A DNA stretch of 64,000 bases, from positions 38,850-102,849 of the forward strand of contig CAVBUH010000030.1 in assembly GCA_963598415.1 (NCBI GenBank), in the 5' to 3' direction. Source of the DNA: Selenomonadaceae bacterium. GTDB lineage: Bacteria; Bacillota; Clostridia; Oscillospirales; CAG-272. Of the stretch, positions 51,564-59,198 are shown in pieces. Below the pieces are notes generated by a model, which did no database searches, had not been told where the DNA came from, and worked only from the letters and a program-made list of their open reading frames with translations. Numbering within the stretch: the first letter of the stretch is position 1; each line of letters starts with the position of its first letter. Position numbers and translations under genes: made by a program.

Positions 51564-51652
51564 GGAGGGATATCGAAGTGGTCATAACGAGGCGGTCTTG
51601 AAAACCGTTTGGGAGCAATCCCACAAGGGTTCGAATCCCTTTCCCTCCGCCA
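51564..51652 (+). tRNA. tRNA-Ser (anticodon UGA), CCA encoded
   Basis: Acceptor GGAGGGA/TCCCTCC, anticodon loop CTTGAAA, long variable arm TGGGA/TCCCA, T-arm AAGGG-TTCGAAT-CCCTT, discriminator G and CCA. Confidence 0.9.
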
Positions 51653-51697: not shown

Positions 51698-51803
51698 GGA
51701 AAAGAGGGGATTCGAACGGGTTGGAAGTGAATGAGTGCCGGTGGCACTCAGAGCCAACCCTGACCGAGCCCGCAGGCGAGAATGAATCCCTTTTCCTCCG
51801 CCA
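51698..51803. repeat. About 106-nt imperfect palindromic element bounded by inverted copies of the tRNA-Ser 3' end; the right arm (51784-51803) is a 19/20 direct repeat of 51633-51652
   Basis: GGAAAAGAGGGGATTCGAAC...GAATCCCTTTTCCTCCGCCA. Internal perfect stems are GGGTTGG/CCAACCC and GAGTGCC/GGCACTC. Confidence 0.7.
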
Positions 51804-51971: not shown

Positions 51972-52133
51972 TCACCTCTCCCAAGGGTTCTCGATTGTCA
52001 TGTTTTCGGGCACTTTTACCGCTTTTTCCATCACTTTTGCGGCATTTTCCTTACTGCTCCAATCCAAATGTGTGTAAATATTGAGGGTTACGCTGACGGT
52101 AGAATGCCCCCAATAGTCCTGCACTTCCTTTCG
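51972..52133 (-). pseudogene. Tyrosine recombinase (phage integrase family) C-terminal remnant
   Basis: Stop-to-stop frame RKEVQDYWGHSTVSVTLNIYTHLDWSS... matches the LGHxxxxxTxxxYxH catalytic-Tyr region. No N-terminal or core part is present, and the upstream 60 nt have 4 in-frame stops. Confidence 0.7.
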
Positions 52134-52193: not shown

Positions 52194-53225
52194 TCAGCTA
52201 TCTGTGACGGTAAGTGACGGTTGTGTCGATATTTCTTCCGTAGGATTTTTCTCGTCATTTGCGTCACCATCGTCATGCGGCAAGAGCGTCAGCTCCAGCC
52301 ACCGACCGTTGCCCGTTCGTCCCGATTCGTAGCGAATGCCGACGAACTTCAGATAGTCGTATGCCTCGGAGGAGAGACTTTTCGTCAGCACGTTGGGCTT
52401 GACGTTCTCCACACCCATAAGGGCAAGAAGCTCACTCGCCGTTCCGCGAAAGTGTCCGTGCTCCTTGATATACTCGCAGGTCTTGTAGACGATAGGGCTG
52501 AACCTTCGATAGCAGCTTGAGCTGCGGTCCTCGTTCCCGTTGACCGTTTCCCAAATGCAATCCTCGAAGGAGAGGCAAACGCCAACGTTTTGTACGTCGC
52601 GCCCCGTCCACAGAAGATCTGCGCGATCAGAACTGCGGTCAAACTTCTTGAGGAGTAGCGCCGTGTCAGCGGCACCCATCAATCCCGTTGAACCCGAGAT
52701 CTGATTGAAGGGATCGTCCTTGTCTTGTGTCTTGCGAAGGTGGTGCACAAGCACGATAGCGATACCAAGATGATCTGCTAACCTTTTCAGCGCACCGATA
52801 TCCTGATAGTCCTTGCCATAGACCGAGCTGTTTGCTTTTAGGTCGGATGAACTGCAAATCTTTTGCAGCGTGTCAATCACCACGAGCTTTGTTTCGGGGT
52901 ACTCTGTTTTGTGTAGAACGAGCTGCTCCTCAAGTGCGCCGCCAAGCGTTCCTGCTTGCACGGCAAAGCGCAATCGGTCAGGGCATTCCTCTGTGATTTT
53001 GGAAACGCGCTCCTTCACTCGCGCAAAGGTATCCTCAAGAGCGAGGTAGAGCACGTCGCAAGGTTGCGTGTTAAAGCCCATAAAACGCACGCCCAACGCT
53101 ACACAAATGCACAGTTGAAGTACGAACCATGACTTGCCGATTTTAGGCTGACCGCAAAGAAGCGTTAAACCTTCGGGGAGCAATTCTGCCACGATGAAAT
53201 TTTTCGGAGCATAGGGCGTTGCCAT
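52194..53225 (-). CDS. RepA/AAA_25-like RecA-fold ATPase (mobile-element replication/primase-associated type)
   Basis: 343 aa with Walker A CGQPKIGKSW, LVVIDTLQ and LVHHLRK blocks, typical of RepA-like helicase-loader ATPases of integrative elements. Confidence 0.7.
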   Translation of the reverse strand: MATPYAPKNFIVAELLPEGLTLLCGQPKIGKSWFVLQLCICVALGVRFMGFNTQPCDVLYLALEDTFARVKERVSKITEECPDRLRFAVQAGTLGGALEEQLVLHKTEYPETKLVVIDTLQKICSSSDLKANSSVYGKDYQDIGALKRLADHLGIAIVLVHHLRKTQDKDDPFNQISGSTGLMGAADTALLLKKFDRSSDRADLLWTGRDVQNVGVCLSFEDCIWETVNGNEDRSSSCYRRFSPIVYKTCEYIKEHGHFRGTASELLALMGVENVKPNVLTKSLSSEAYDYLKFVGIRYESGRTGNGRWLELTLLPHDDGDANDEKNPTEEISTQPSLTVTDS

Positions 53226-53335: not shown

Positions 53336-53554
53336 TTACGATGCATCAGCGTCACACAGCATATAGCGAATGACGTTGATTTTGGGAATCCTGAAACGGT
53401 TTCCCACGATTACGCCGTGGATCTGCGGATGCTTTGCAAGTTCAAGTGCCGCTTTGCGCCCGATGCCCAGCATTTTTTGCAGATCACAAATGCCGACGAT
53501 GTCGGGATAATCCGCGAACATCATCTTCTCGTAAACAGTTGTCTTTTCTGTCAT
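53336..53554 (-). CDS. Excisionase/MerR-type HTH (HTH_17) small DNA-binding protein
   Basis: AAAGGAG RBS before ATG 53554. ...IVGICDLQKMLGIGRKAALELAKHPQIHGVIVGNRFRIPKINVIRYM. The ORF-track start at 53671 is unlikely. Confidence 0.7.
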   Translation of the reverse strand: MTEKTTVYEKMMFADYPDIVGICDLQKMLGIGRKAALELAKHPQIHGVIVGNRFRIPKINVIRYMLCDADAS

Positions 53555-53750
53555 ACACGATTCTCCTTTCTTTACAGTATGTAAAGAAGGCGTAACCGCT
53601 TCGCGGGTGCGCGTCTCACCATTTCGAGCATGACTCCCGCACCTCTCCCGTCGCATCGCAGGCGCGGACAAGGTCTATGTCAGCGAACTGCGGATTTCGA
53701 GAATGAAACTTGTCCGCAGTATATATAAACACCGCTTTCGCGAATGTTTT

Positions 53751-53875
53751 CAAAAATAAAAAGGGCGAGCATCAGAATAAGACAGAGGATACCTCTGTAA
53801 TAAAATCTGATACTCACCCTTGTCTCTCGATTTCACAGCCGGGAGGATGGCTCACTTTCGATTGTTATTGTATGC
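53751..53875. repeat. Direct repeat R, copy 1 (flanks the barnase/barstar cassette)
   Basis: About 125 nt, ~90% identical by eye to 54847-54973 (GGCGAGCATCAGAATAAGACAGAGG...CTCACCCTTGTCTCTCGATTTCACAGCC...GGATGGCTCAC). Confidence 0.85.
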
Positions 53876-54185
53876 TTATACGGGTGTTACCGCTGACAAT
53901 TTCAATTTGAATGTCATCGCAAAACATATCGTTATTATAATGCTTGAAGCGTTTCAATATTTCAATCATCTTGTTTGCGGAATCTCCGAATTTTCTTTCG
54001 ATGATTTCAAGACCTATGATTACGATGTGTATCGGTTCTCCATACATATCCGTAAGACAATCCCAAAAAGCCGACCAATTACAACCGTAATAATCAGGAA
54101 ATTTCAAGGACTTTTGAATGGTTTTATGCATCTCTAAAAAATATTTAGTATTTCTAAAATCGATTATATATTTATTTGAAATCAT
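53865..54185 (-). CDS. Barstar-family ribonuclease inhibitor (immunity protein)
   Basis: 106 aa. FPDYYGCNWSAFWDCLTD parallels barstar LPEYYGENLDALWDCLTG. Confidence 0.9.
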   Translation of the reverse strand: MISNKYIIDFRNTKYFLEMHKTIQKSLKFPDYYGCNWSAFWDCLTDMYGEPIHIVIIGLEIIERKFGDSANKMIEILKRFKHYNNDMFCDDIQIEIVSGNTRISIQ

Positions 54186-54195
54186 TATGCTCTCC

Positions 54196-54768
54196 TTATT
54201 GTGTTATTTCATAAAAAGTTTGATAATGATCGTATGTAACAAATATCAAACCATCATTTGAGTATAGTACTCTTTCGCGATTGCGTTTACCGCCATCATA
54301 ATTAATATCAGCCTCGTACCATGTTCTTCCGGGGAATGTAGGCAGTTTTAGATCATAGTTAGCATATGGATCACCACCGATCATTTTGCCTGGCAAAACA
54401 TCGTCTAATTGTTTGTGCTTCTTCTTCCATCCGGCAGCATATGCCTCAGCTTTGGTGACATAATAATTTGGCAAGCGACCTAAAAAATATAATTGCGCAT
54501 CGGCTCCATTATATCCTATATTTGTAGCGGTTCCCGCCGTTTTAGTTCGCATCGAAACATAGACGCATTTGCAATTGGGGTGTGCCTCAACTTCTTCTTT
54601 GTTATCCAAAATAGAAATGTCAACAATTTTTCCATGCTGTTCTATACAGAATTTGCAGGTATATATAGTTAATTGCGACATCCAATTTGCCCATTTGGTG
54701 CTATGCCCATATAAATCTCGGTTCTGAAGAAGATTATTTAATAAATTTTCTATTATATTTTCTGACAT
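54196..54768 (-). CDS. Barnase-family secreted-type ribonuclease toxin fused to a short MuF-like (CxxC...HPNCKC) N-terminal module
   Basis: C-terminal GRTWYEADINYDGGKRNRERVLYSNDGLIFVTYDHYQTF matches barnase GRTWREADINY...DHYQTF (Glu, Arg and His retained). The N-terminus CKFCIEQHGKIV...AHPNCKC resembles the end of the phage Mu F/SPP1 gp7 domain. Confidence 0.88.
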   Translation of the reverse strand: MSENIIENLLNNLLQNRDLYGHSTKWANWMSQLTIYTCKFCIEQHGKIVDISILDNKEEVEAHPNCKCVYVSMRTKTAGTATNIGYNGADAQLYFLGRLPNYYVTKAEAYAAGWKKKHKQLDDVLPGKMIGGDPYANYDLKLPTFPGRTWYEADINYDGGKRNRERVLYSNDGLIFVTYDHYQTFYEITQ

Positions 54769-54780
54769 TTTTACTCCTTA

Positions 54781-54809
54781 ATTATATTGTGTTTTTTATT
54801 TTTTGTCAA
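54781..54809 (-). promoter_or_regulatory. Perfect consensus promoter (TTGACA-17-TATAAT) directly upstream of the barnase gene
   Basis: The minus strand reads TTGACAAAAAATAAAAAACACAATATAATTAAGGAGTAAAAATG. The -10 ends only 12 nt before the ATG. Confidence 0.6.
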
Positions 54810-54846
54810 CTACAAGACATTACTTTCGTTAAGCACCACTCCTTCC

Positions 54847-54973
54847 CAAAAAACAAAAATGGCGAGCATCAGAATAAGACAGAGGTTGCTTCTGTAATAA
54901 AATCTGATACTCACCCTTGTCTCTCGATTTCACAGCCGAGAGGATGGCTCACTTTTCATTGTTATTATTATAC
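54847..54973. repeat. Direct repeat R, copy 2
   Basis: See 53751-53875. Confidence 0.85.
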
Positions 54974-54976
54974 TGA

Positions 54977-55216
54977 TTAAATAATCGGCACCGCCACGTA
55001 TCCTGCGGCGACCTTTGGCTTCTCAATCACCACAAGCATTTTCTTGCAGCGAGGGCAAAGATATGTAGGACCTTCGTATCCCGGTTCAGCTATGCGCGCG
55101 GTTACGTTGCGATTTTCGCGCGGATTGCTGCTATAGAGAATGGTGCAACCACATTCGGGGTTAGCGCACTTTGCAATCGGGATCTTATCTTGTGTAGCCT
55201 TACGCAATAGAATCAC
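54977..55216 (-). CDS. Small zinc-ribbon protein (CxxC...CxxC), hypothetical
   Basis: CANPECGC...CPRCKK. It is translationally coupled to the LexA-like gene. The alternative TTG start at 55207 is better spaced from GAGGTG. Confidence 0.5.
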   Translation of the reverse strand: MILLRKATQDKIPIAKCANPECGCTILYSSNPRENRNVTARIAEPGYEGPTYLCPRCKKMLVVIEKPKVAAGYVAVPII

Positions 55217-55217
55217 C

Positions 55218-55832
55218 TCACTTAATGTCCTTGATTACCTTCAGGGCAATACCTTGTATCTCAATCTTGCTCGGTTTTATCTCGCGGCGTTCTTTGGGAT
55301 AGTTCTTGTTCTCTGCAAGCAGCCAGGGACGCCCGTTTTCGCGCTTCATGAAGCGTTTGAGCGTGGTGCCCTCGTCCGTGAGCACGGCAACCACTTGCCC
55401 GTCATAAGCCTCCTGCGCGCGTTTAATGAGGACTAGATCACCGTCATCAATGCCAATGTTGATCATTGAATCACCCGACGTGCGAAGCAAATAGCACTCG
55501 CCGTCCAGCCACTCTTCCGGAATGGCAACGTAGCCTCGTATCTCCTGTCGGTTGTCCTCGGGAGAGCCGCAGACAATCGAACCAACGATGGGAACGCGGC
55601 GGAAGGCGGTCTTCATCGACTCTTGCCCTTTAACGGAAAGTGTATCCTTACCGTTGTATTTGACAATGCCACGGTCGCGCAGGGTGGTCAGATAGCGATA
55701 TCCAACCGAATTGCTCATCTCCATGTACTCAAGGATGTCCTTGAATTTGGGCGACTCGCCGTTGTTCTCCCGTATGTAGCGGTGAATGAACTCCGCCATT
55801 TGATTCAGTTTTTCTTCATTCATCCGCTTCAT
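55218..55832 (-). CDS. LexA/CI-like repressor (winged HTH + S24 peptidase)
   Basis: 204 aa with a cleavage-site-like VCG, catalytic GDSM (Ser) and LKRF (Lys), and an N-terminal LexA_DNA_bind-like region. Confidence 0.85.
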   Translation of the reverse strand: MKRMNEEKLNQMAEFIHRYIRENNGESPKFKDILEYMEMSNSVGYRYLTTLRDRGIVKYNGKDTLSVKGQESMKTAFRRVPIVGSIVCGSPEDNRQEIRGYVAIPEEWLDGECYLLRTSGDSMINIGIDDGDLVLIKRAQEAYDGQVVAVLTDEGTTLKRFMKRENGRPWLLAENKNYPKERREIKPSKIEIQGIALKVIKDIK

Positions 55833-56175: not shown

Positions 56176-57384
56176 TCAAGTGGGTGTCGCCTCTGACAAA
56201 CTGAAATATACATTTTCGTTGTCAAAAAGCAATTCTACGGGCTCATTGTAAATCTTGTTCACCGCATTGATGTTATCAACAAACGGGCGAACGCAAGCAC
56301 AATGTTCGTGCGCAAAAAGTTCCATGGTATTTTCTGTGCGCTTTTCGCTATAATTTTGAACCTTATCACCGGCTTCAATAAGATTTTCGTCTACTTGACC
56401 ATCGCTTATTTTCGGAATTTTAGCAATTGTTTTCCCAAGTACTCTATTCAAGCTTGCGACACCTTTTAAGGTATAGGCTTCGATGGATGTTTTTGAATCA
56501 CCTTCTATCCTCTGATAGCATTTTTCATGCAAATCGTGATACTGACCTGCGTACAGTTGAATTTTGCTTGTTACGGCATTCAAATATCCGGCATCAAAAT
56601 TTTCAAGTAGCATTACTTCAAGGAAGGATGAGAAGGAGAAGATATACATTGCAAGCTCGTAATCCTTGAATTCGTACTGAACTTTTTGTATCTTGGATTT
56701 TACATCTCGGTCACTATGCAACAATCCTTTCTTAGTAACCTTCTTTTCAATTTGCTCGCGGCAGAAAATTATGCTTTGCTCCGCATCGCGCTTTATTTCT
56801 TGAACTTGAATATGCTTATTGTTTTTGTATTTTTTGTTGTCCCAATTGTACTTGTATTCGTCAAGTATTTCCTGCAGAACAGCGATATTGCCTTTCAACA
56901 TAGCTTTCTCTTTCAATTGTAAAAACTCGATAATATCCTTTTGCGCTTCTTCAATTTGGTCGAGTTTTTTTGTGATGGTTGATATAGCTATCGCCATCAG
57001 CATAATAGCCGGGTTAATTTGAGCAACCGTTCCGGCGGCTCCTTGAACCGCCTCAAAACGCGCTCTTTGCGTAATCGTTCCGCTTGCATCTACAACGTTT
57101 CCAAGCAAACCGCCATCTTTGGCAATTTGCAGACTTTCTCCCAACCGTAAACCATTTGGAATCCGCATACTGTATAACTGTTGTCCTACTCCTGAGTTTT
57201 GAACGCCGTTAAAAACATTCTTCAGCGCAGGTGCAATCGAAGCAAAAGTTGCTCCCATTGCAGATAGTTGACCAAGAGGAATCTTGGTATATTCTTGTGT
57301 AGCAACTTCATCTTGAATAACGGGGTAACACTCAATTTCCGTCATCGCACGAACTATTGCGTTTTTCTTTGTTATTTCATCCAT
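56176..57384 (-). CDS. Hypothetical protein (402 aa), no recognised domain
   Basis: AGGAGG sits 9 nt before ATG 57384. Gly/Ala-rich N-terminal third, one hydrophobic helix INPAIMLMAIAISTI, then a K/E/Q-rich helical region. Confidence 0.6.
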   Translation of the reverse strand: MDEITKKNAIVRAMTEIECYPVIQDEVATQEYTKIPLGQLSAMGATFASIAPALKNVFNGVQNSGVGQQLYSMRIPNGLRLGESLQIAKDGGLLGNVVDASGTITQRARFEAVQGAAGTVAQINPAIMLMAIAISTITKKLDQIEEAQKDIIEFLQLKEKAMLKGNIAVLQEILDEYKYNWDNKKYKNNKHIQVQEIKRDAEQSIIFCREQIEKKVTKKGLLHSDRDVKSKIQKVQYEFKDYELAMYIFSFSSFLEVMLLENFDAGYLNAVTSKIQLYAGQYHDLHEKCYQRIEGDSKTSIEAYTLKGVASLNRVLGKTIAKIPKISDGQVDENLIEAGDKVQNYSEKRTENTMELFAHEHCACVRPFVDNINAVNKIYNEPVELLFDNENVYFSLSEATPT

Positions 57385-57452
57385 AGTTGATGACCTCCTC
57401 ATTGTTTTTCACAATAGGTCTTGTAAATTTTGCGAATAAACTTCGAGGGCTT

Positions 57453-59180
57453 TTACAAGCTCTTCAAATATTCAGTGGCGTTCACATACTGAACCCCATC
57501 CACGTCCTTTGTTTCTCCGCTGTAAATTACGTATTTGCCCGTGATTTTGCCAAATCTCTTTTCGGTAATCTCGTTCAATTCTTCCATACGCAAGAATCTT
57601 GCCTGTTGCTCTACGATTTTGTCGCTGTGCTTTACTTCATAAATGCGGCAGGTGTTTGTGTCTTTATCATAGATCACCATGTCATACTCGCCGCGAACGT
57701 CAAACTTGAATTTGAACACCTCTTGGCTACGAGGAGCGGCTTTGGATGTCTCAAGCAACACAATATCCTCAAGCATTCTGCCTTTTACATCGTCAAGAAT
57801 CTTCGTTGCGATATATTCTTTATCAAGCTCCGATACCGATTTGAAATATTCGTCCTGCTTCAGAGAATAAACAAGCGCTTTGGCTATGGAATAGCGCATA
57901 CCGGGCTGGAAGAATACGGTGTGTTCGGACTGTCCGCGCGTCTCATGGCGTTCGATACAATTTACAATCAAATCAAGCATAAAGAGATATTTTTTCACCT
58001 TCTCAATATGCTCCTGCGTGATTTCCACCGTGGTCTCGCGTCTTTCCTTCACTTCGATCAATACCTTCAGGCGGTCAACAATTGCTTTGGTATCTATGTC
58101 ATAGAGAATGTGCGCTCTCTCTGCAGGTGCTTCTTTCAAAAGAAGCTGTCTCGACGAACCAAGGTCATGGGATTTGAATTCTTCTTGCACCACGCTCAAA
58201 AGGAATTGGTGGTTCATGCTTTCAACGATTCGGTTGATGACATTGGTCAACTCACCCTTGTCGTAAAGCTCGCGCAACTGATTGAAATACTCGCCGTAGC
58301 TGTCGTTTTTCAGCGTGTGCTGAATATTACGGCTGATTGCGGTATCAATGTATTTTCTCGTGCTCTCATCGTCGCGGAAGGAAACGTCATCGAAAGCGGA
58401 ATCAGGGTCATCAAAACTCATATTCTCCATCTTGAGCGTTCCGCCGTATTCAATATAACTATCCACAGAATCAATACCAAGCAATCGCGAATATTCCCGG
58501 AAAGGAATAAAGGACGTGTGGATCGTTATGCTTCTGTCATACAGCTCGTCTCGGTTTGCCATAGCAAAGCCGAGGGAGTCCGTACCCGAAACGACGATTT
58601 TCATACCCATCATGGCGTATATATCGGAGAGAACCGCCGCCGTATTGATGAAATCCTCCATCAAGGTGATTTCGTCTATGAACACATACTTGTATCCGTT
58701 CTTGCTCAAAACATCAAGGTCCTTTGTCAGCATAGACATATTGTCGGTGGTCTTGATCTTGATATAAGCGGTATGCTCCACGGGAAGAGAACTAATCATT
58801 TGGAATAGTAGGGTGGTCTTACCAGTCCTACGTAAGCCGTAAAGAATACAAATTTTTCCGCCAATATCTCTCTTTATAAATTCTTGCAAGAGGTCATAGC
58901 AATCTCTCTTTTGATATTTGGCGACACCGCGCACAAGTGCTTGTATACTTTCACCGGTGACAACATTGGTGTGAAACCCGCCAATGCTCAAAACGGTAGC
59001 AGATGTGGGCACTTTCTGTCCATAAGCCTCAACCTTTTGGTAGATAGCATTGTATTTTGCGGTTTTTATTTTGCGTTCATCATTTTCGTAATTCTGATAA
59101 TTCCTCACGGACATACCAAGATAATCAGCACATTCGATTTGGCTGAGTCCCTTGGATATTCTTAGTTGTTTCAAAGTCAT
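57453..59180 (-). CDS. XRE-HTH + P-loop ATPase (AAA_14-like) + C-terminal DUF4143/PD-(D/E)xK-like domain protein
   Basis: LKQLRISKGLSQIECADYLGMS HTH, GLRRTGKTT Walker A, VFIDEI Walker B and C-terminal GEYDMVIY...CRIYEVKH. GAGGTG RBS precedes ATG 59180. Confidence 0.75.
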   Translation of the reverse strand: MTLKQLRISKGLSQIECADYLGMSVRNYQNYENDERKIKTAKYNAIYQKVEAYGQKVPTSATVLSIGGFHTNVVTGESIQALVRGVAKYQKRDCYDLLQEFIKRDIGGKICILYGLRRTGKTTLLFQMISSLPVEHTAYIKIKTTDNMSMLTKDLDVLSKNGYKYVFIDEITLMEDFINTAAVLSDIYAMMGMKIVVSGTDSLGFAMANRDELYDRSITIHTSFIPFREYSRLLGIDSVDSYIEYGGTLKMENMSFDDPDSAFDDVSFRDDESTRKYIDTAISRNIQHTLKNDSYGEYFNQLRELYDKGELTNVINRIVESMNHQFLLSVVQEEFKSHDLGSSRQLLLKEAPAERAHILYDIDTKAIVDRLKVLIEVKERRETTVEITQEHIEKVKKYLFMLDLIVNCIERHETRGQSEHTVFFQPGMRYSIAKALVYSLKQDEYFKSVSELDKEYIATKILDDVKGRMLEDIVLLETSKAAPRSQEVFKFKFDVRGEYDMVIYDKDTNTCRIYEVKHSDKIVEQQARFLRMEELNEITEKRFGKITGKYVIYSGETKDVDGVQYVNATEYLKSL

Positions 59181-59198
59181 TATCATCACCTCAATGTT

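Follow-up and report, generated by a model that had tools for sequence, protein, structure and literature searches.

How did the genes for an RNase toxin and its antidote come to lie between two direct repeats, and what are these repeats? The question is raised by a 64,000-nucleotide (nt) stretch of contig CAVBUH010000030.1 (assembly GCA_963598415.1, positions 38,850 to 102,849; a Selenomonadaceae bacterium, placed by GTDB in Clostridia, Oscillospirales, CAG-272), which is referred to here as the window and numbered from its first letter. In the window, a barnase-type toxin gene and a barstar-type antidote gene form a cassette that is bracketed by two copies of a repeat, R, with R2 upstream and R1 downstream in the direction of transcription. 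All genes between 52 and 59 kb lie on the minus strand, and the GC content of the cassette is 31-36% versus ~50% in its flanks. Our answer is that recombination placed the pair of toxin and antidote genes in a decayed mobile element, whose own conserved terminator now stands on both sides of it in two diverged copies. We regard the region as probably a two-gene toxin-immunity cargo module of a decayed integrative mobilizable element (IME) that adjoins a tRNA-Ser gene in a gut Clostridia genome, a judgement that covers the whole explanation jointly, including the mechanism set out below. The kind of event is recognisable toxin-module shuffling and no new mechanism. The original prediction, made from the letters and a list of open reading frames (ORFs), had described a barnase/barstar cassette with a consensus promoter and direct repeats; all of the listed features were found, on the minus strand and with small changes of coordinates.

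The cassette genes and the repeats around them

The toxin gene (54196-54768, minus strand) encodes 190 amino acids (aa), with a Cys/His module related to phage MuF proteins at aa ~20-90 and a complete barnase domain at aa 86-188. Pfam matched aa 99-188 to the Ribonuclease family (PF00545, 44.7 bits against a cut-off of 24, E 2e-11), and a family profile of 39 homologues aligned aa 86-188 to residues 7-109 of barnase 1a2p, which is nearly the whole mature enzyme (E 3e-37). Toxin residues E152, R162, R166 and H181, held in the WYEAD, KRNRER and DHYQTF contexts, are the equivalents of barnase Glu73, Arg83, Arg87 and His102 and were invariant in the 39 homologues, in agreement with the catalytic Glu/Arg/His context first noticed in the sequence. 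An AlphaFold2 model built on the family alignment reached a predicted local distance difference test score (pLDDT) of 89.8. No hydrophobic stretch was visible at the N-terminus of the toxin sequence, in line with the earlier remark that no signal peptide was seen. We read the toxin as a predicted catalytically intact barnase fused to a small Cys/His-rich module, and its family as a large one of probably cytoplasmic proteins of ~190 aa.

The gene of the barstar immunity protein (53865-54185, minus strand) starts 11 nt past the toxin stop and has its own AAGGAG ribosome-binding site. It matched PF01337 with 59.6 bits (cut-off 23.4, E 3e-16) and barstar in the PDB with E 4e-8, and its alignment to 1b2u keeps YYGxNxxAxWDCLT with the WDCLT helix; the initial naming of this ORF as a barstar stands. 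A barstar was found next to the barnase in all cassette contexts examined. From what is known of the family, the downstream barstar presumably neutralises the toxin, and the pair would act as a resident toxin-immunity, addiction or competition module. In one relative (L028, 1312-2030), two tandem barstar genes follow one barnase; the two share a perfect 52-nt stretch at the 3' end and a further repeat of 127 nt that is 75% identical, a sign that the immunity gene was duplicated.

The direct repeats around this pair span 53752-53869 and 54849-54966, are 93% identical over 118 ungapped nt, and reach ~123 nt with the AATAA shared at their 5' edge. They flank the cassette as described before but are slightly shorter than the 125-127 nt first given. 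No further copy was found in the window beyond these two, and none in 100 shuffles. R2, the upstream copy (54849-54971, minus strand), consists of an invariant core with CCATCCTC at 54947-54940, a hairpin named P1 (54921-54942), a terminator hairpin (54861-54916) and a U-run (54849-54860), and is contiguous with the leader of the cassette. R1, the downstream copy (53752-53874, minus strand), begins in the AATAA that holds the barstar stop codon, contains P1 (53824-53845), the terminator hairpin (53764-53819) and the U-run (53752-53763), and runs on into the backbone of the element. On the minus strand, each copy stands directly 3' of a stop codon, R2 after an ORF for a 79-aa zinc (Zn)-ribbon-like protein and R1 after the barstar gene.

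Both copies are strongly structured, with folding energies of -46.6 kcal/mol for R1 (z -6.3) and -40.5 kcal/mol for R2 (z -3.8), and the hairpin seen in the first reading is followed by the U-run on the minus strand. Thirty-two distinct alleles of R have the invariant core CCATCCTCYCG...GTGAA...CGRGAG.CAAGGGT. Across the 7-bp P1 hairpin and the 14-bp base of the terminator stem, 93.6% of cells were paired, compared with 37-52% in slid controls, and 11 pairs in the P1/terminator stem had changed on both sides. The fold can be assigned to the transcript because G.U cells outnumbered A.C cells by 101 to 22 on the gene strand; nearly all of the 32 alleles fold on the transcribed strand with a U-run at the end. 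Judged by its sequence and covariation, R is the native 3' untranslated region (UTR) and predicted intrinsic terminator of an operon of an S24 repressor and the Zn-ribbon protein, and no end of the cassette. Scans of Rfam 15, with gathering and with permissive thresholds, returned no family for R, only tRNA-Ser and chance matches, and DNA searches of phage GenBank and IMG/VR with R or the region returned nothing.

R shares with other intrinsic terminators and with leader or attenuator RNAs a GC-rich hairpin that shows compensatory changes and has a U-run behind it on the transcribed strand; a conserved structured segment precedes the hairpin, and the next operon comes after it. It differs from them in that its 35-nt core, CCAUCCUCCCG...GUGAA...CGGGAG.CAAGGGU, is invariant while the neighbouring repressor drops to 32% identity, and from known leader RNAs in having no Rfam 15 family. 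The strict conservation of the core suggests a role beyond termination, with regulated read-through as one possibility. Three further candidates were set aside. A 45-aa hydrophobic ORF with a GTG start (53680-53817, minus strand) overlies the terminator hairpin of R1; its start and frame are unconserved in other alleles of R, and it is probably no gene. Anti-terminator pairing, in which GUGAGCCAUC would bind the terminator's 3' arm, is plausible for the main type of allele and, on inspection, had no consistent support in the others. Finally, R resembles the nick regions of RP4 and R1162, but an origin of transfer (oriT) seems less likely: the upstream AAGTGAG is unconserved in some alleles, there is no inverted repeat 5' of the core on that strand, and the G.U bias and U-run fit an RNA of the gene strand.

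Recombination at R and at other cassette junctions

Contigs with identical backbone proteins were compared over the slot between the Zn-ribbon ORF and the gene for a 72-aa helix-turn-helix (HTH) protein (HTH72). The slot was empty, with a single R, in L004 (99% identity) and L006 (88%); relatives of this kind, with one R and no cassette, are what the original prediction had proposed to look for. In other relatives it held different cargo upstream of a single R, namely a PDDEXK_13/REase-ARP nuclease or an AAA_15/AAA_21 ATPase (L009/L012, L011/L015), or an orphan barstar without a barnase (L058, L042). The third state, that of the window, is R-barnase-barstar-R. A hotspot for cargo lies between the Zn-ribbon ORF and R. 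The earlier idea of different cargo at R therefore holds for the nuclease, the ATPase and the orphan barstar beside a single R, but these are not flanked by R copies.

The unit of R, leader, promoter, barnase and barstar was conserved at ~72% in L026, L028 and L029 and at ~76% in L069; the first three have no second R, and L069 has a different R allele downstream. The 3' end of R2 runs unbroken into the cassette leader, as in the alignments with L026, L028 and L069. The 3' part of R1, together with its downstream flank, matched the single-R backbone alleles of L006, L009 and L011, and R1 was 90.6-91.2% identical to the backbone single-R alleles, compared with 87.3-88.3% for R2. The allele of L069 (1124-1280) carries an insertion of ~85 nt between the P1 and terminator hairpins, and a fragment of a DDE_Tnp_1_6 transposase lies downstream of the cassette in the same contig.

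Traces of exchange at R were found in two comparisons. The single R of L004 equals an L001-type R2 at all 5' variable sites and R1 at all 3' variable sites, which indicates that it is the exact product of a crossover between R2 and R1 with loss of the cassette. Because the L004 repeat is an exact R2/R1 chimera, loss of the cassette by repeat recombination can be read from it. L013 and L007 were ~100% identical over 3.9 kb except at R1 (91-93%) and R2 (97%, a few sites), with a diverged patch of ~200 nt at R1 (L013, 4700-4900); the patches at R indicate gene conversion with a foreign R allele. These allele comparisons show that recombination has evidently been active at R. The original inference that the cassette was inserted or exchanged by recombination at R is upheld in a refined form, in which R acts as a stretch of homology.

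To place the bracket in a wider frame, homologues of the cassette from metagenomes, genomes and viral contigs were collected, and the 800 nt upstream of the barnase were compared with the 700 nt downstream of the barstar. Flanking direct repeats of 20-264 nt with 76-100% identity were found in 12 of 39 distinct contexts, and the inverted-repeat and cross-locus controls each gave 1 of 39; the remaining 27 contexts had no flanking repeat. The repeats were unrelated between contexts and included a rubredoxin 3' end with its terminator, the end of a GGGtGRT gene, the end of a holin gene and tRNA 3' fragments. The upstream copy was an intact gene 3' end, and the downstream copy was 5'-truncated, starting 1-36 nt past the barstar stop in 7 contexts. 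No junction motif was shared across 9 contexts; microhomology was seen at junctions, AATAA in the window and CTGA in L168. In coding repeats, differences between copies fell at codon positions 1/2/3 in numbers of 9/13/51 (p 2e-10). Because the differences lie mainly at third codon positions, the copies of these coding repeats were diverged functional alleles later brought together, and no target-site duplications. Since unrelated sequences bracket cassettes elsewhere, bracketing is evidently not special to R, and R appears to be no dedicated recombination site. Of the two roles first offered for R, a recombination site or a shared 3' UTR and terminator, the second is thus the one retained, on the evidence of hairpin, U-run and covariation.

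The N-terminal module and the origin of the bracket

The N-terminal ~90 aa of the toxin are rich in Cys and His, and C38, C41, H45, H63, C66 and C68 are invariant in the homologues. A search for toxin homologues gave 1,639 matches, nearly all of 185-197 aa and with the N-terminal module kept. Because they share the same ~190-aa layout, the module appears to be a conserved part of a stand-alone family and no broken remnant or truncated MuF toxin. The domain matched head-morphogenesis and minor-head families of PHROGs (E 1.4e-4 to 0.02), and in a tblastn search against GenBank phages every weak match lay inside a MuF-like minor capsid or head-morphogenesis gene. Its profile, run against 1.8 billion representatives, retrieved 184 clusters, almost all of them short proteins of N-domain plus barnase. 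The more distant of these carry the canonical TCxxC...PPxHPNCRC signature, and 20 of 34 distant members individually match PF04233 (Phage_Mu_F), with a best E of 1.4e-11. Because of the PHROGs matches, the tblastn matches and the profile intermediates with PF04233 matches, homology of the N-domain to the MuF core is supported via intermediate sequences. The assignment to MuF in the original prediction is accordingly sustained as an alignment through intermediates, but not as a direct Pfam match. A PDB search with the N-domain profile gave only a chance match to L43 (E 3.4). The module probably binds zinc and may interact with components of phage heads.

The toxin family lies mostly outside phages, in chromosomal contexts or as mobile-element cargo, and only 4 relatives, moron-like, were found in the 2.9 million viral contigs of IMG/VR. 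In one of them (L168, 3635-4800), also a distant one, the cassette exactly separates a holin gene's stop codon from the holin terminator, and 80 nt of the holin 3' end are duplicated. A distant relative of the cassette in another viral contig (L166, 3899-4821) lies between the tape-measure and major-tail genes. With only ~70 aa of the core present and IME or chromosomal genes as neighbours, the 190-aa toxin is a variant of the MuF polymorphic toxin theme that falls outside its definition (PMC5576092).

In the explanation that we favour, the cassette would have arrived together with a donor allele of R, the present R2, by homologous recombination anchored in the S24/Zn-ribbon/R region. The other end would have been joined illegitimately at AATAA, a microhomology in which the barstar stop codon and the beginning of the recipient's R come together; this recipient copy would be R1. 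Afterwards, R2 and R1 could recombine with each other to delete the cassette, and could also swap gene-conversion patches. The proposed mechanism is homology-facilitated illegitimate recombination, one-sided and with its join at the barstar stop codon, and it shares in the joint judgement of probable given above. It is favoured because the upstream copies are intact, the downstream copies are truncated, the alleles have diverged and the junction has microhomology. Of the marks of a C-terminal displacement product, an intact upstream copy contiguous with the module, a 5'-truncated downstream copy and microhomology at the junction were present; the fourth, allelic divergence, was shown in the coding contexts and would hold for R by extension.

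Several points weigh against this explanation. Neither a donor at high identity, with R2 and no R1, nor a true pre-insertion allele for the window lineage was recovered. The direction of the change, insertion and no ancestral state, is deduced from comparison, with L004 best read as a secondary deletion. The codon-position test ran on analogous coding repeats, R being non-coding. The two copies of the L080 repeat are near-identical where they are non-coding and ~80% identical where they are coding, which needs extra gene conversion. A circular intermediate of R plus cassette that integrated through one crossover would leave an identical product and may have been the route instead; against its site-specific form speak the codon-position test and the absence of junction motifs. 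On the side of the toxin, a Pfam scan of residues 1-95 gave no family even at E 10, with the PF04233 threshold not reached, and a structural search of BFVD with the toxin model gave no match below E 0.1, its weak local matches of ~50 aa being mostly to minor capsid or head-morphogenesis proteins.

Other origins of the bracket were weighed against the same evidence. The long imperfect hairpins of R recall attC sites, the Zn-ribbon/HTH72 slot holds different cargo in relatives, and the cassettes of L131 and L110 are bracketed by tRNA 3'-end fragments, a classic attachment (att) signature; all this would suit an R that is a dedicated att- or attC-like site and a cassette that is integron-type or integrase-mobilised. 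However, the cassette holds no recombinase, the element's integrase is a 50-aa remnant, and no integrase lies in or adjoining the cassette. The brackets of homologous cassettes are unrelated in sequence and have no junction motif in common, other cargo stands upstream of a single R, inside the operon, without R on both sides, the third-codon-position differences point to allelic divergence and not to exchange at a short core, and R folds on the transcribed strand with a U-run in nearly all of its 32 alleles. We consider such a site very unlikely. Hardly credible, too, is a target-site duplication left by a non-autonomous mobile cassette that entered the terminator in a transposition-like or target-primed manner. 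It would account for the recurrence of bracketing in 12 of 39 contexts, for a right boundary that is sharp at the barstar stop with a left boundary and repeat length (20-264 nt) that vary, and for the 97.5-100% identity of some repeats (L168, L032), but in most contexts the copies are 76-93% identical, and 51 of 73 coding differences lie at third positions, which is unexpected if one copy has been a pseudogene since the duplication. Terminal inverted repeats (1 of 39) and conserved cassette ends are also missing, and 27 of 39 contexts have no repeat. If the terminator region had been duplicated in tandem where it stood, for instance by replication slippage at the hairpin, no import would be needed and the cassette would be ancestral, downstream of R. 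The unit of S24, small ORF, R, promoter, barnase and barstar is old (~72% identity in L026/L028), so that an ancestral cassette is conceivable, but the GC content of the cassette is much below that of the backbone, 7% of positions differ between R1 and R2, against ~100% identity of strains across the surrounding 3.9 kb, R1 groups with backbone alleles and R2 with the cassette leader, and the same bracket with diverged alleles recurs in unrelated loci. We find this duplication quite improbable.

The last alternative concerns the function of the pair, which might be a remnant of a phage-borne MuF polymorphic toxin, packaged into capsids via its MuF module and injected into new hosts, in place of a resident toxin-immunity or addiction module. 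The homology of the N-domain to the MuF core, the documented fusions of MuF and toxin followed by small immunity genes (PMC5576092, PMC3482391) and the few relatives in prophages (L166, L168) agree with it. Yet only ~70 aa of the MuF core are present, no portal, terminase or head module lies nearby in the window or in most contexts, and the mere 4 relatives in 2.9 million viral contigs stand after a holin or between tail genes and not at the MuF position; we rate capsid transfer as unlikely.

Promoter, known systems and the carrier element

A sigma-70-type promoter, TTGACA-17-TATAAT, lies at 54781-54809 (minus strand) with 12 of 12 consensus matches, and its -10 hexamer ends 12 nt before the toxin ATG, both as first proposed. 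The Shine-Dalgarno (SD) segment T-AAGGAG-TAAAA (54769-54780, minus strand) fills the space between the -10 hexamer and the ATG, and this geometry, a -10 abutting AAGGAG-N5-6-ATG, is kept in 9 independent contexts. Transcripts from the cassette promoter are predicted to be without most of the toxin SD. Because the -10 hexamer abuts the toxin ribosome-binding site, poor translation of barnase is predicted from promoter-initiated mRNA: the promoter would drive the pair, the near-leaderless mRNA would yield little barnase and ample barstar, and immunity would be in excess. The conserved overlap of promoter and ribosome site is a lead worth following, as it could set the ratio of toxin to antidote. 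Ahead of the -35 hexamer, the cassette leader (54810-54848, minus strand) has a conserved motif, GGAGTGGTGCTTAACGAAAGTA, which in the form GGAGTGATGCYTAnnGAAAGTA is placed ~25 nt upstream of this hexamer in the window, L026, L028, L068 and L069. L068 and L070 have a second promoter-like site, GGGGTTGACA/GGGGTTTACA-17-GATATAAT, ~130 nt upstream.

All components are of known kinds: barnase-barstar, a MuF-type toxin fusion, an intrinsic terminator, and displacement of toxin modules by one-ended recombination. The window pair shares with barnase-barstar of Bacillus amyloliquefaciens the full barnase domain with its E/R/R/H residues and, immediately downstream, a barstar that keeps the inhibitory WDCLT helix. 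It differs in having no signal peptide on the toxin and an extra N-terminal Cys/His module of ~90 aa, in having toxin and inhibitor in a single operon whose consensus promoter is fused to the SD, and in being mobile-element cargo in gut Clostridia. The toxins associated with MuF are known to include RNases with immunity proteins of the barstar type (Jamet et al. 2017, PMC5576092; Zhang et al. 2012, PMC3482391). As in the MuF polymorphic toxins of temperate phages, a MuF-related module stands N-terminal to the toxin domain and a small immunity gene follows, but here only the ~70-aa CxxC...HPNCxC core is present, the whole protein has 190 aa, and the family lies outside the head-morphogenesis module and mostly outside phages. 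Homology-facilitated illegitimate recombination was previously proposed for effector-immunity modules of type VI secretion systems (T6SS) (Kirchberger et al. 2017, PMC5361080). In T6SS arrays and in the orphan modules of Rhs and contact-dependent inhibition (CDI) loci, as here, the incoming module brings a diverged upstream copy, the recipient copy is pushed downstream, and the repeats can recombine. The window differs in that the anchor is outside the toxin gene and can be the 3' end of any upstream gene or a terminator (R, rubredoxin, holin, tRNA), and in that the toxin gene stands by itself under a promoter of its own and no old immunity gene is kept.

The new aspects are modest, namely a free-standing family of 190-aa mini-MuF-barnases, a fused promoter and ribosome-binding site, arbitrary upstream gene ends as recombination anchors, and R as an uncatalogued conserved RNA structure. 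On the favoured explanation, a self-contained toxin-immunity module that has no recombinase would spread through gut Clostridia by riding on a diverged allele of an upstream gene end, and the paired alleles left behind would form a datable scar. The displacement logic of Rhs, CDI and T6SS loci would thereby extend to free-standing cassettes, and the mini-MuF-barnase proteins are a lead to a large undescribed family.

The operon that ends in R begins with a LexA/CI-like repressor gene (55218-55832, minus strand), whose product has an N-terminal HTH and a Peptidase_S24 domain (PF00717, E 5.9e-25). Its second gene (54977-55216, minus strand) encodes the 79-aa Zn-ribbon-like protein (CxxC...CxxC), for which no Pfam or PHROG family was found; the stop codon lies ~10 nt before R2. 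HTH72 (53336-53554, minus strand), an excisionase-type protein with a weak match to HTH_17, is encoded by the first backbone gene downstream of R, and the identical 72-aa protein occurs in 540 collection blocks, always ~300 nt past R. It is followed by a gene for an AAA_25 (RepA-like) ATPase (52194-53225, minus strand; PF13481, E 3.7e-28) and then by what is left of a tyrosine integrase, a C-terminal piece of 50 aa (51972-52124, minus strand). Because relatives carry a NikA-like gene, a relaxase and a tyrosine integrase after AAA_25, the element family can be assigned to the IMEs. All three are missing from the window element save the integrase remnant, and this element is a decayed copy. Its end is marked by tRNA-Ser(TGA) at 51564-51652 (plus strand) and a second copy of the 3' 20 nt of that gene at 51784-51803 with 1 mismatch; the window showed no second att copy of the element.

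A degenerate pattern of the R core was found once in each of 30 species-level genomes, all of them metagenome-assembled genomes of gut Clostridia (L038-L067). In these, R always came just after the S24 repressor and the small Zn-ribbon ORF, even at 32-38% identity of S24, and just before the excisionase-type HTH gene and/or the AAA_25 gene. Zn-ribbon homologues or analogous CxxC proteins ended 4-70 nt before R in nearly all loci. In L050, a gene for a Y-family (UmuC/DinB-like) polymerase lies directly 3' of R. From its position across these genomes, R appears to mark the boundary between a regulatory operon and the genes for excision, replication and mobilisation, and could act as a regulated terminator in this family of mobile elements; a conserved structured terminator absent from Rfam that marks such a boundary is a lead in itself. 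A more far-reaching proposal is that R is an undescribed cis-regulatory RNA, a hairpin with a conditional terminator that gates read-through into the excision, replication and mobilisation genes, possibly by antitermination through the Zn-ribbon protein, and that mini-MuF-barnase cassettes use such terminator-proximal positions and might load their RNase into the capsids of co-resident phages. Taken together, we hold this chain to be doubtful, though worth stating.

Upstream of the repressor, a 408-aa protein with no Pfam or PHROG family (56176-57402, minus strand) adjoins a 578-aa ATPase with HTH_3 and AAA_14 domains (57453-59189, minus strand). Relatives keep both along with the element, and the pair may be a defence system or additional cargo.

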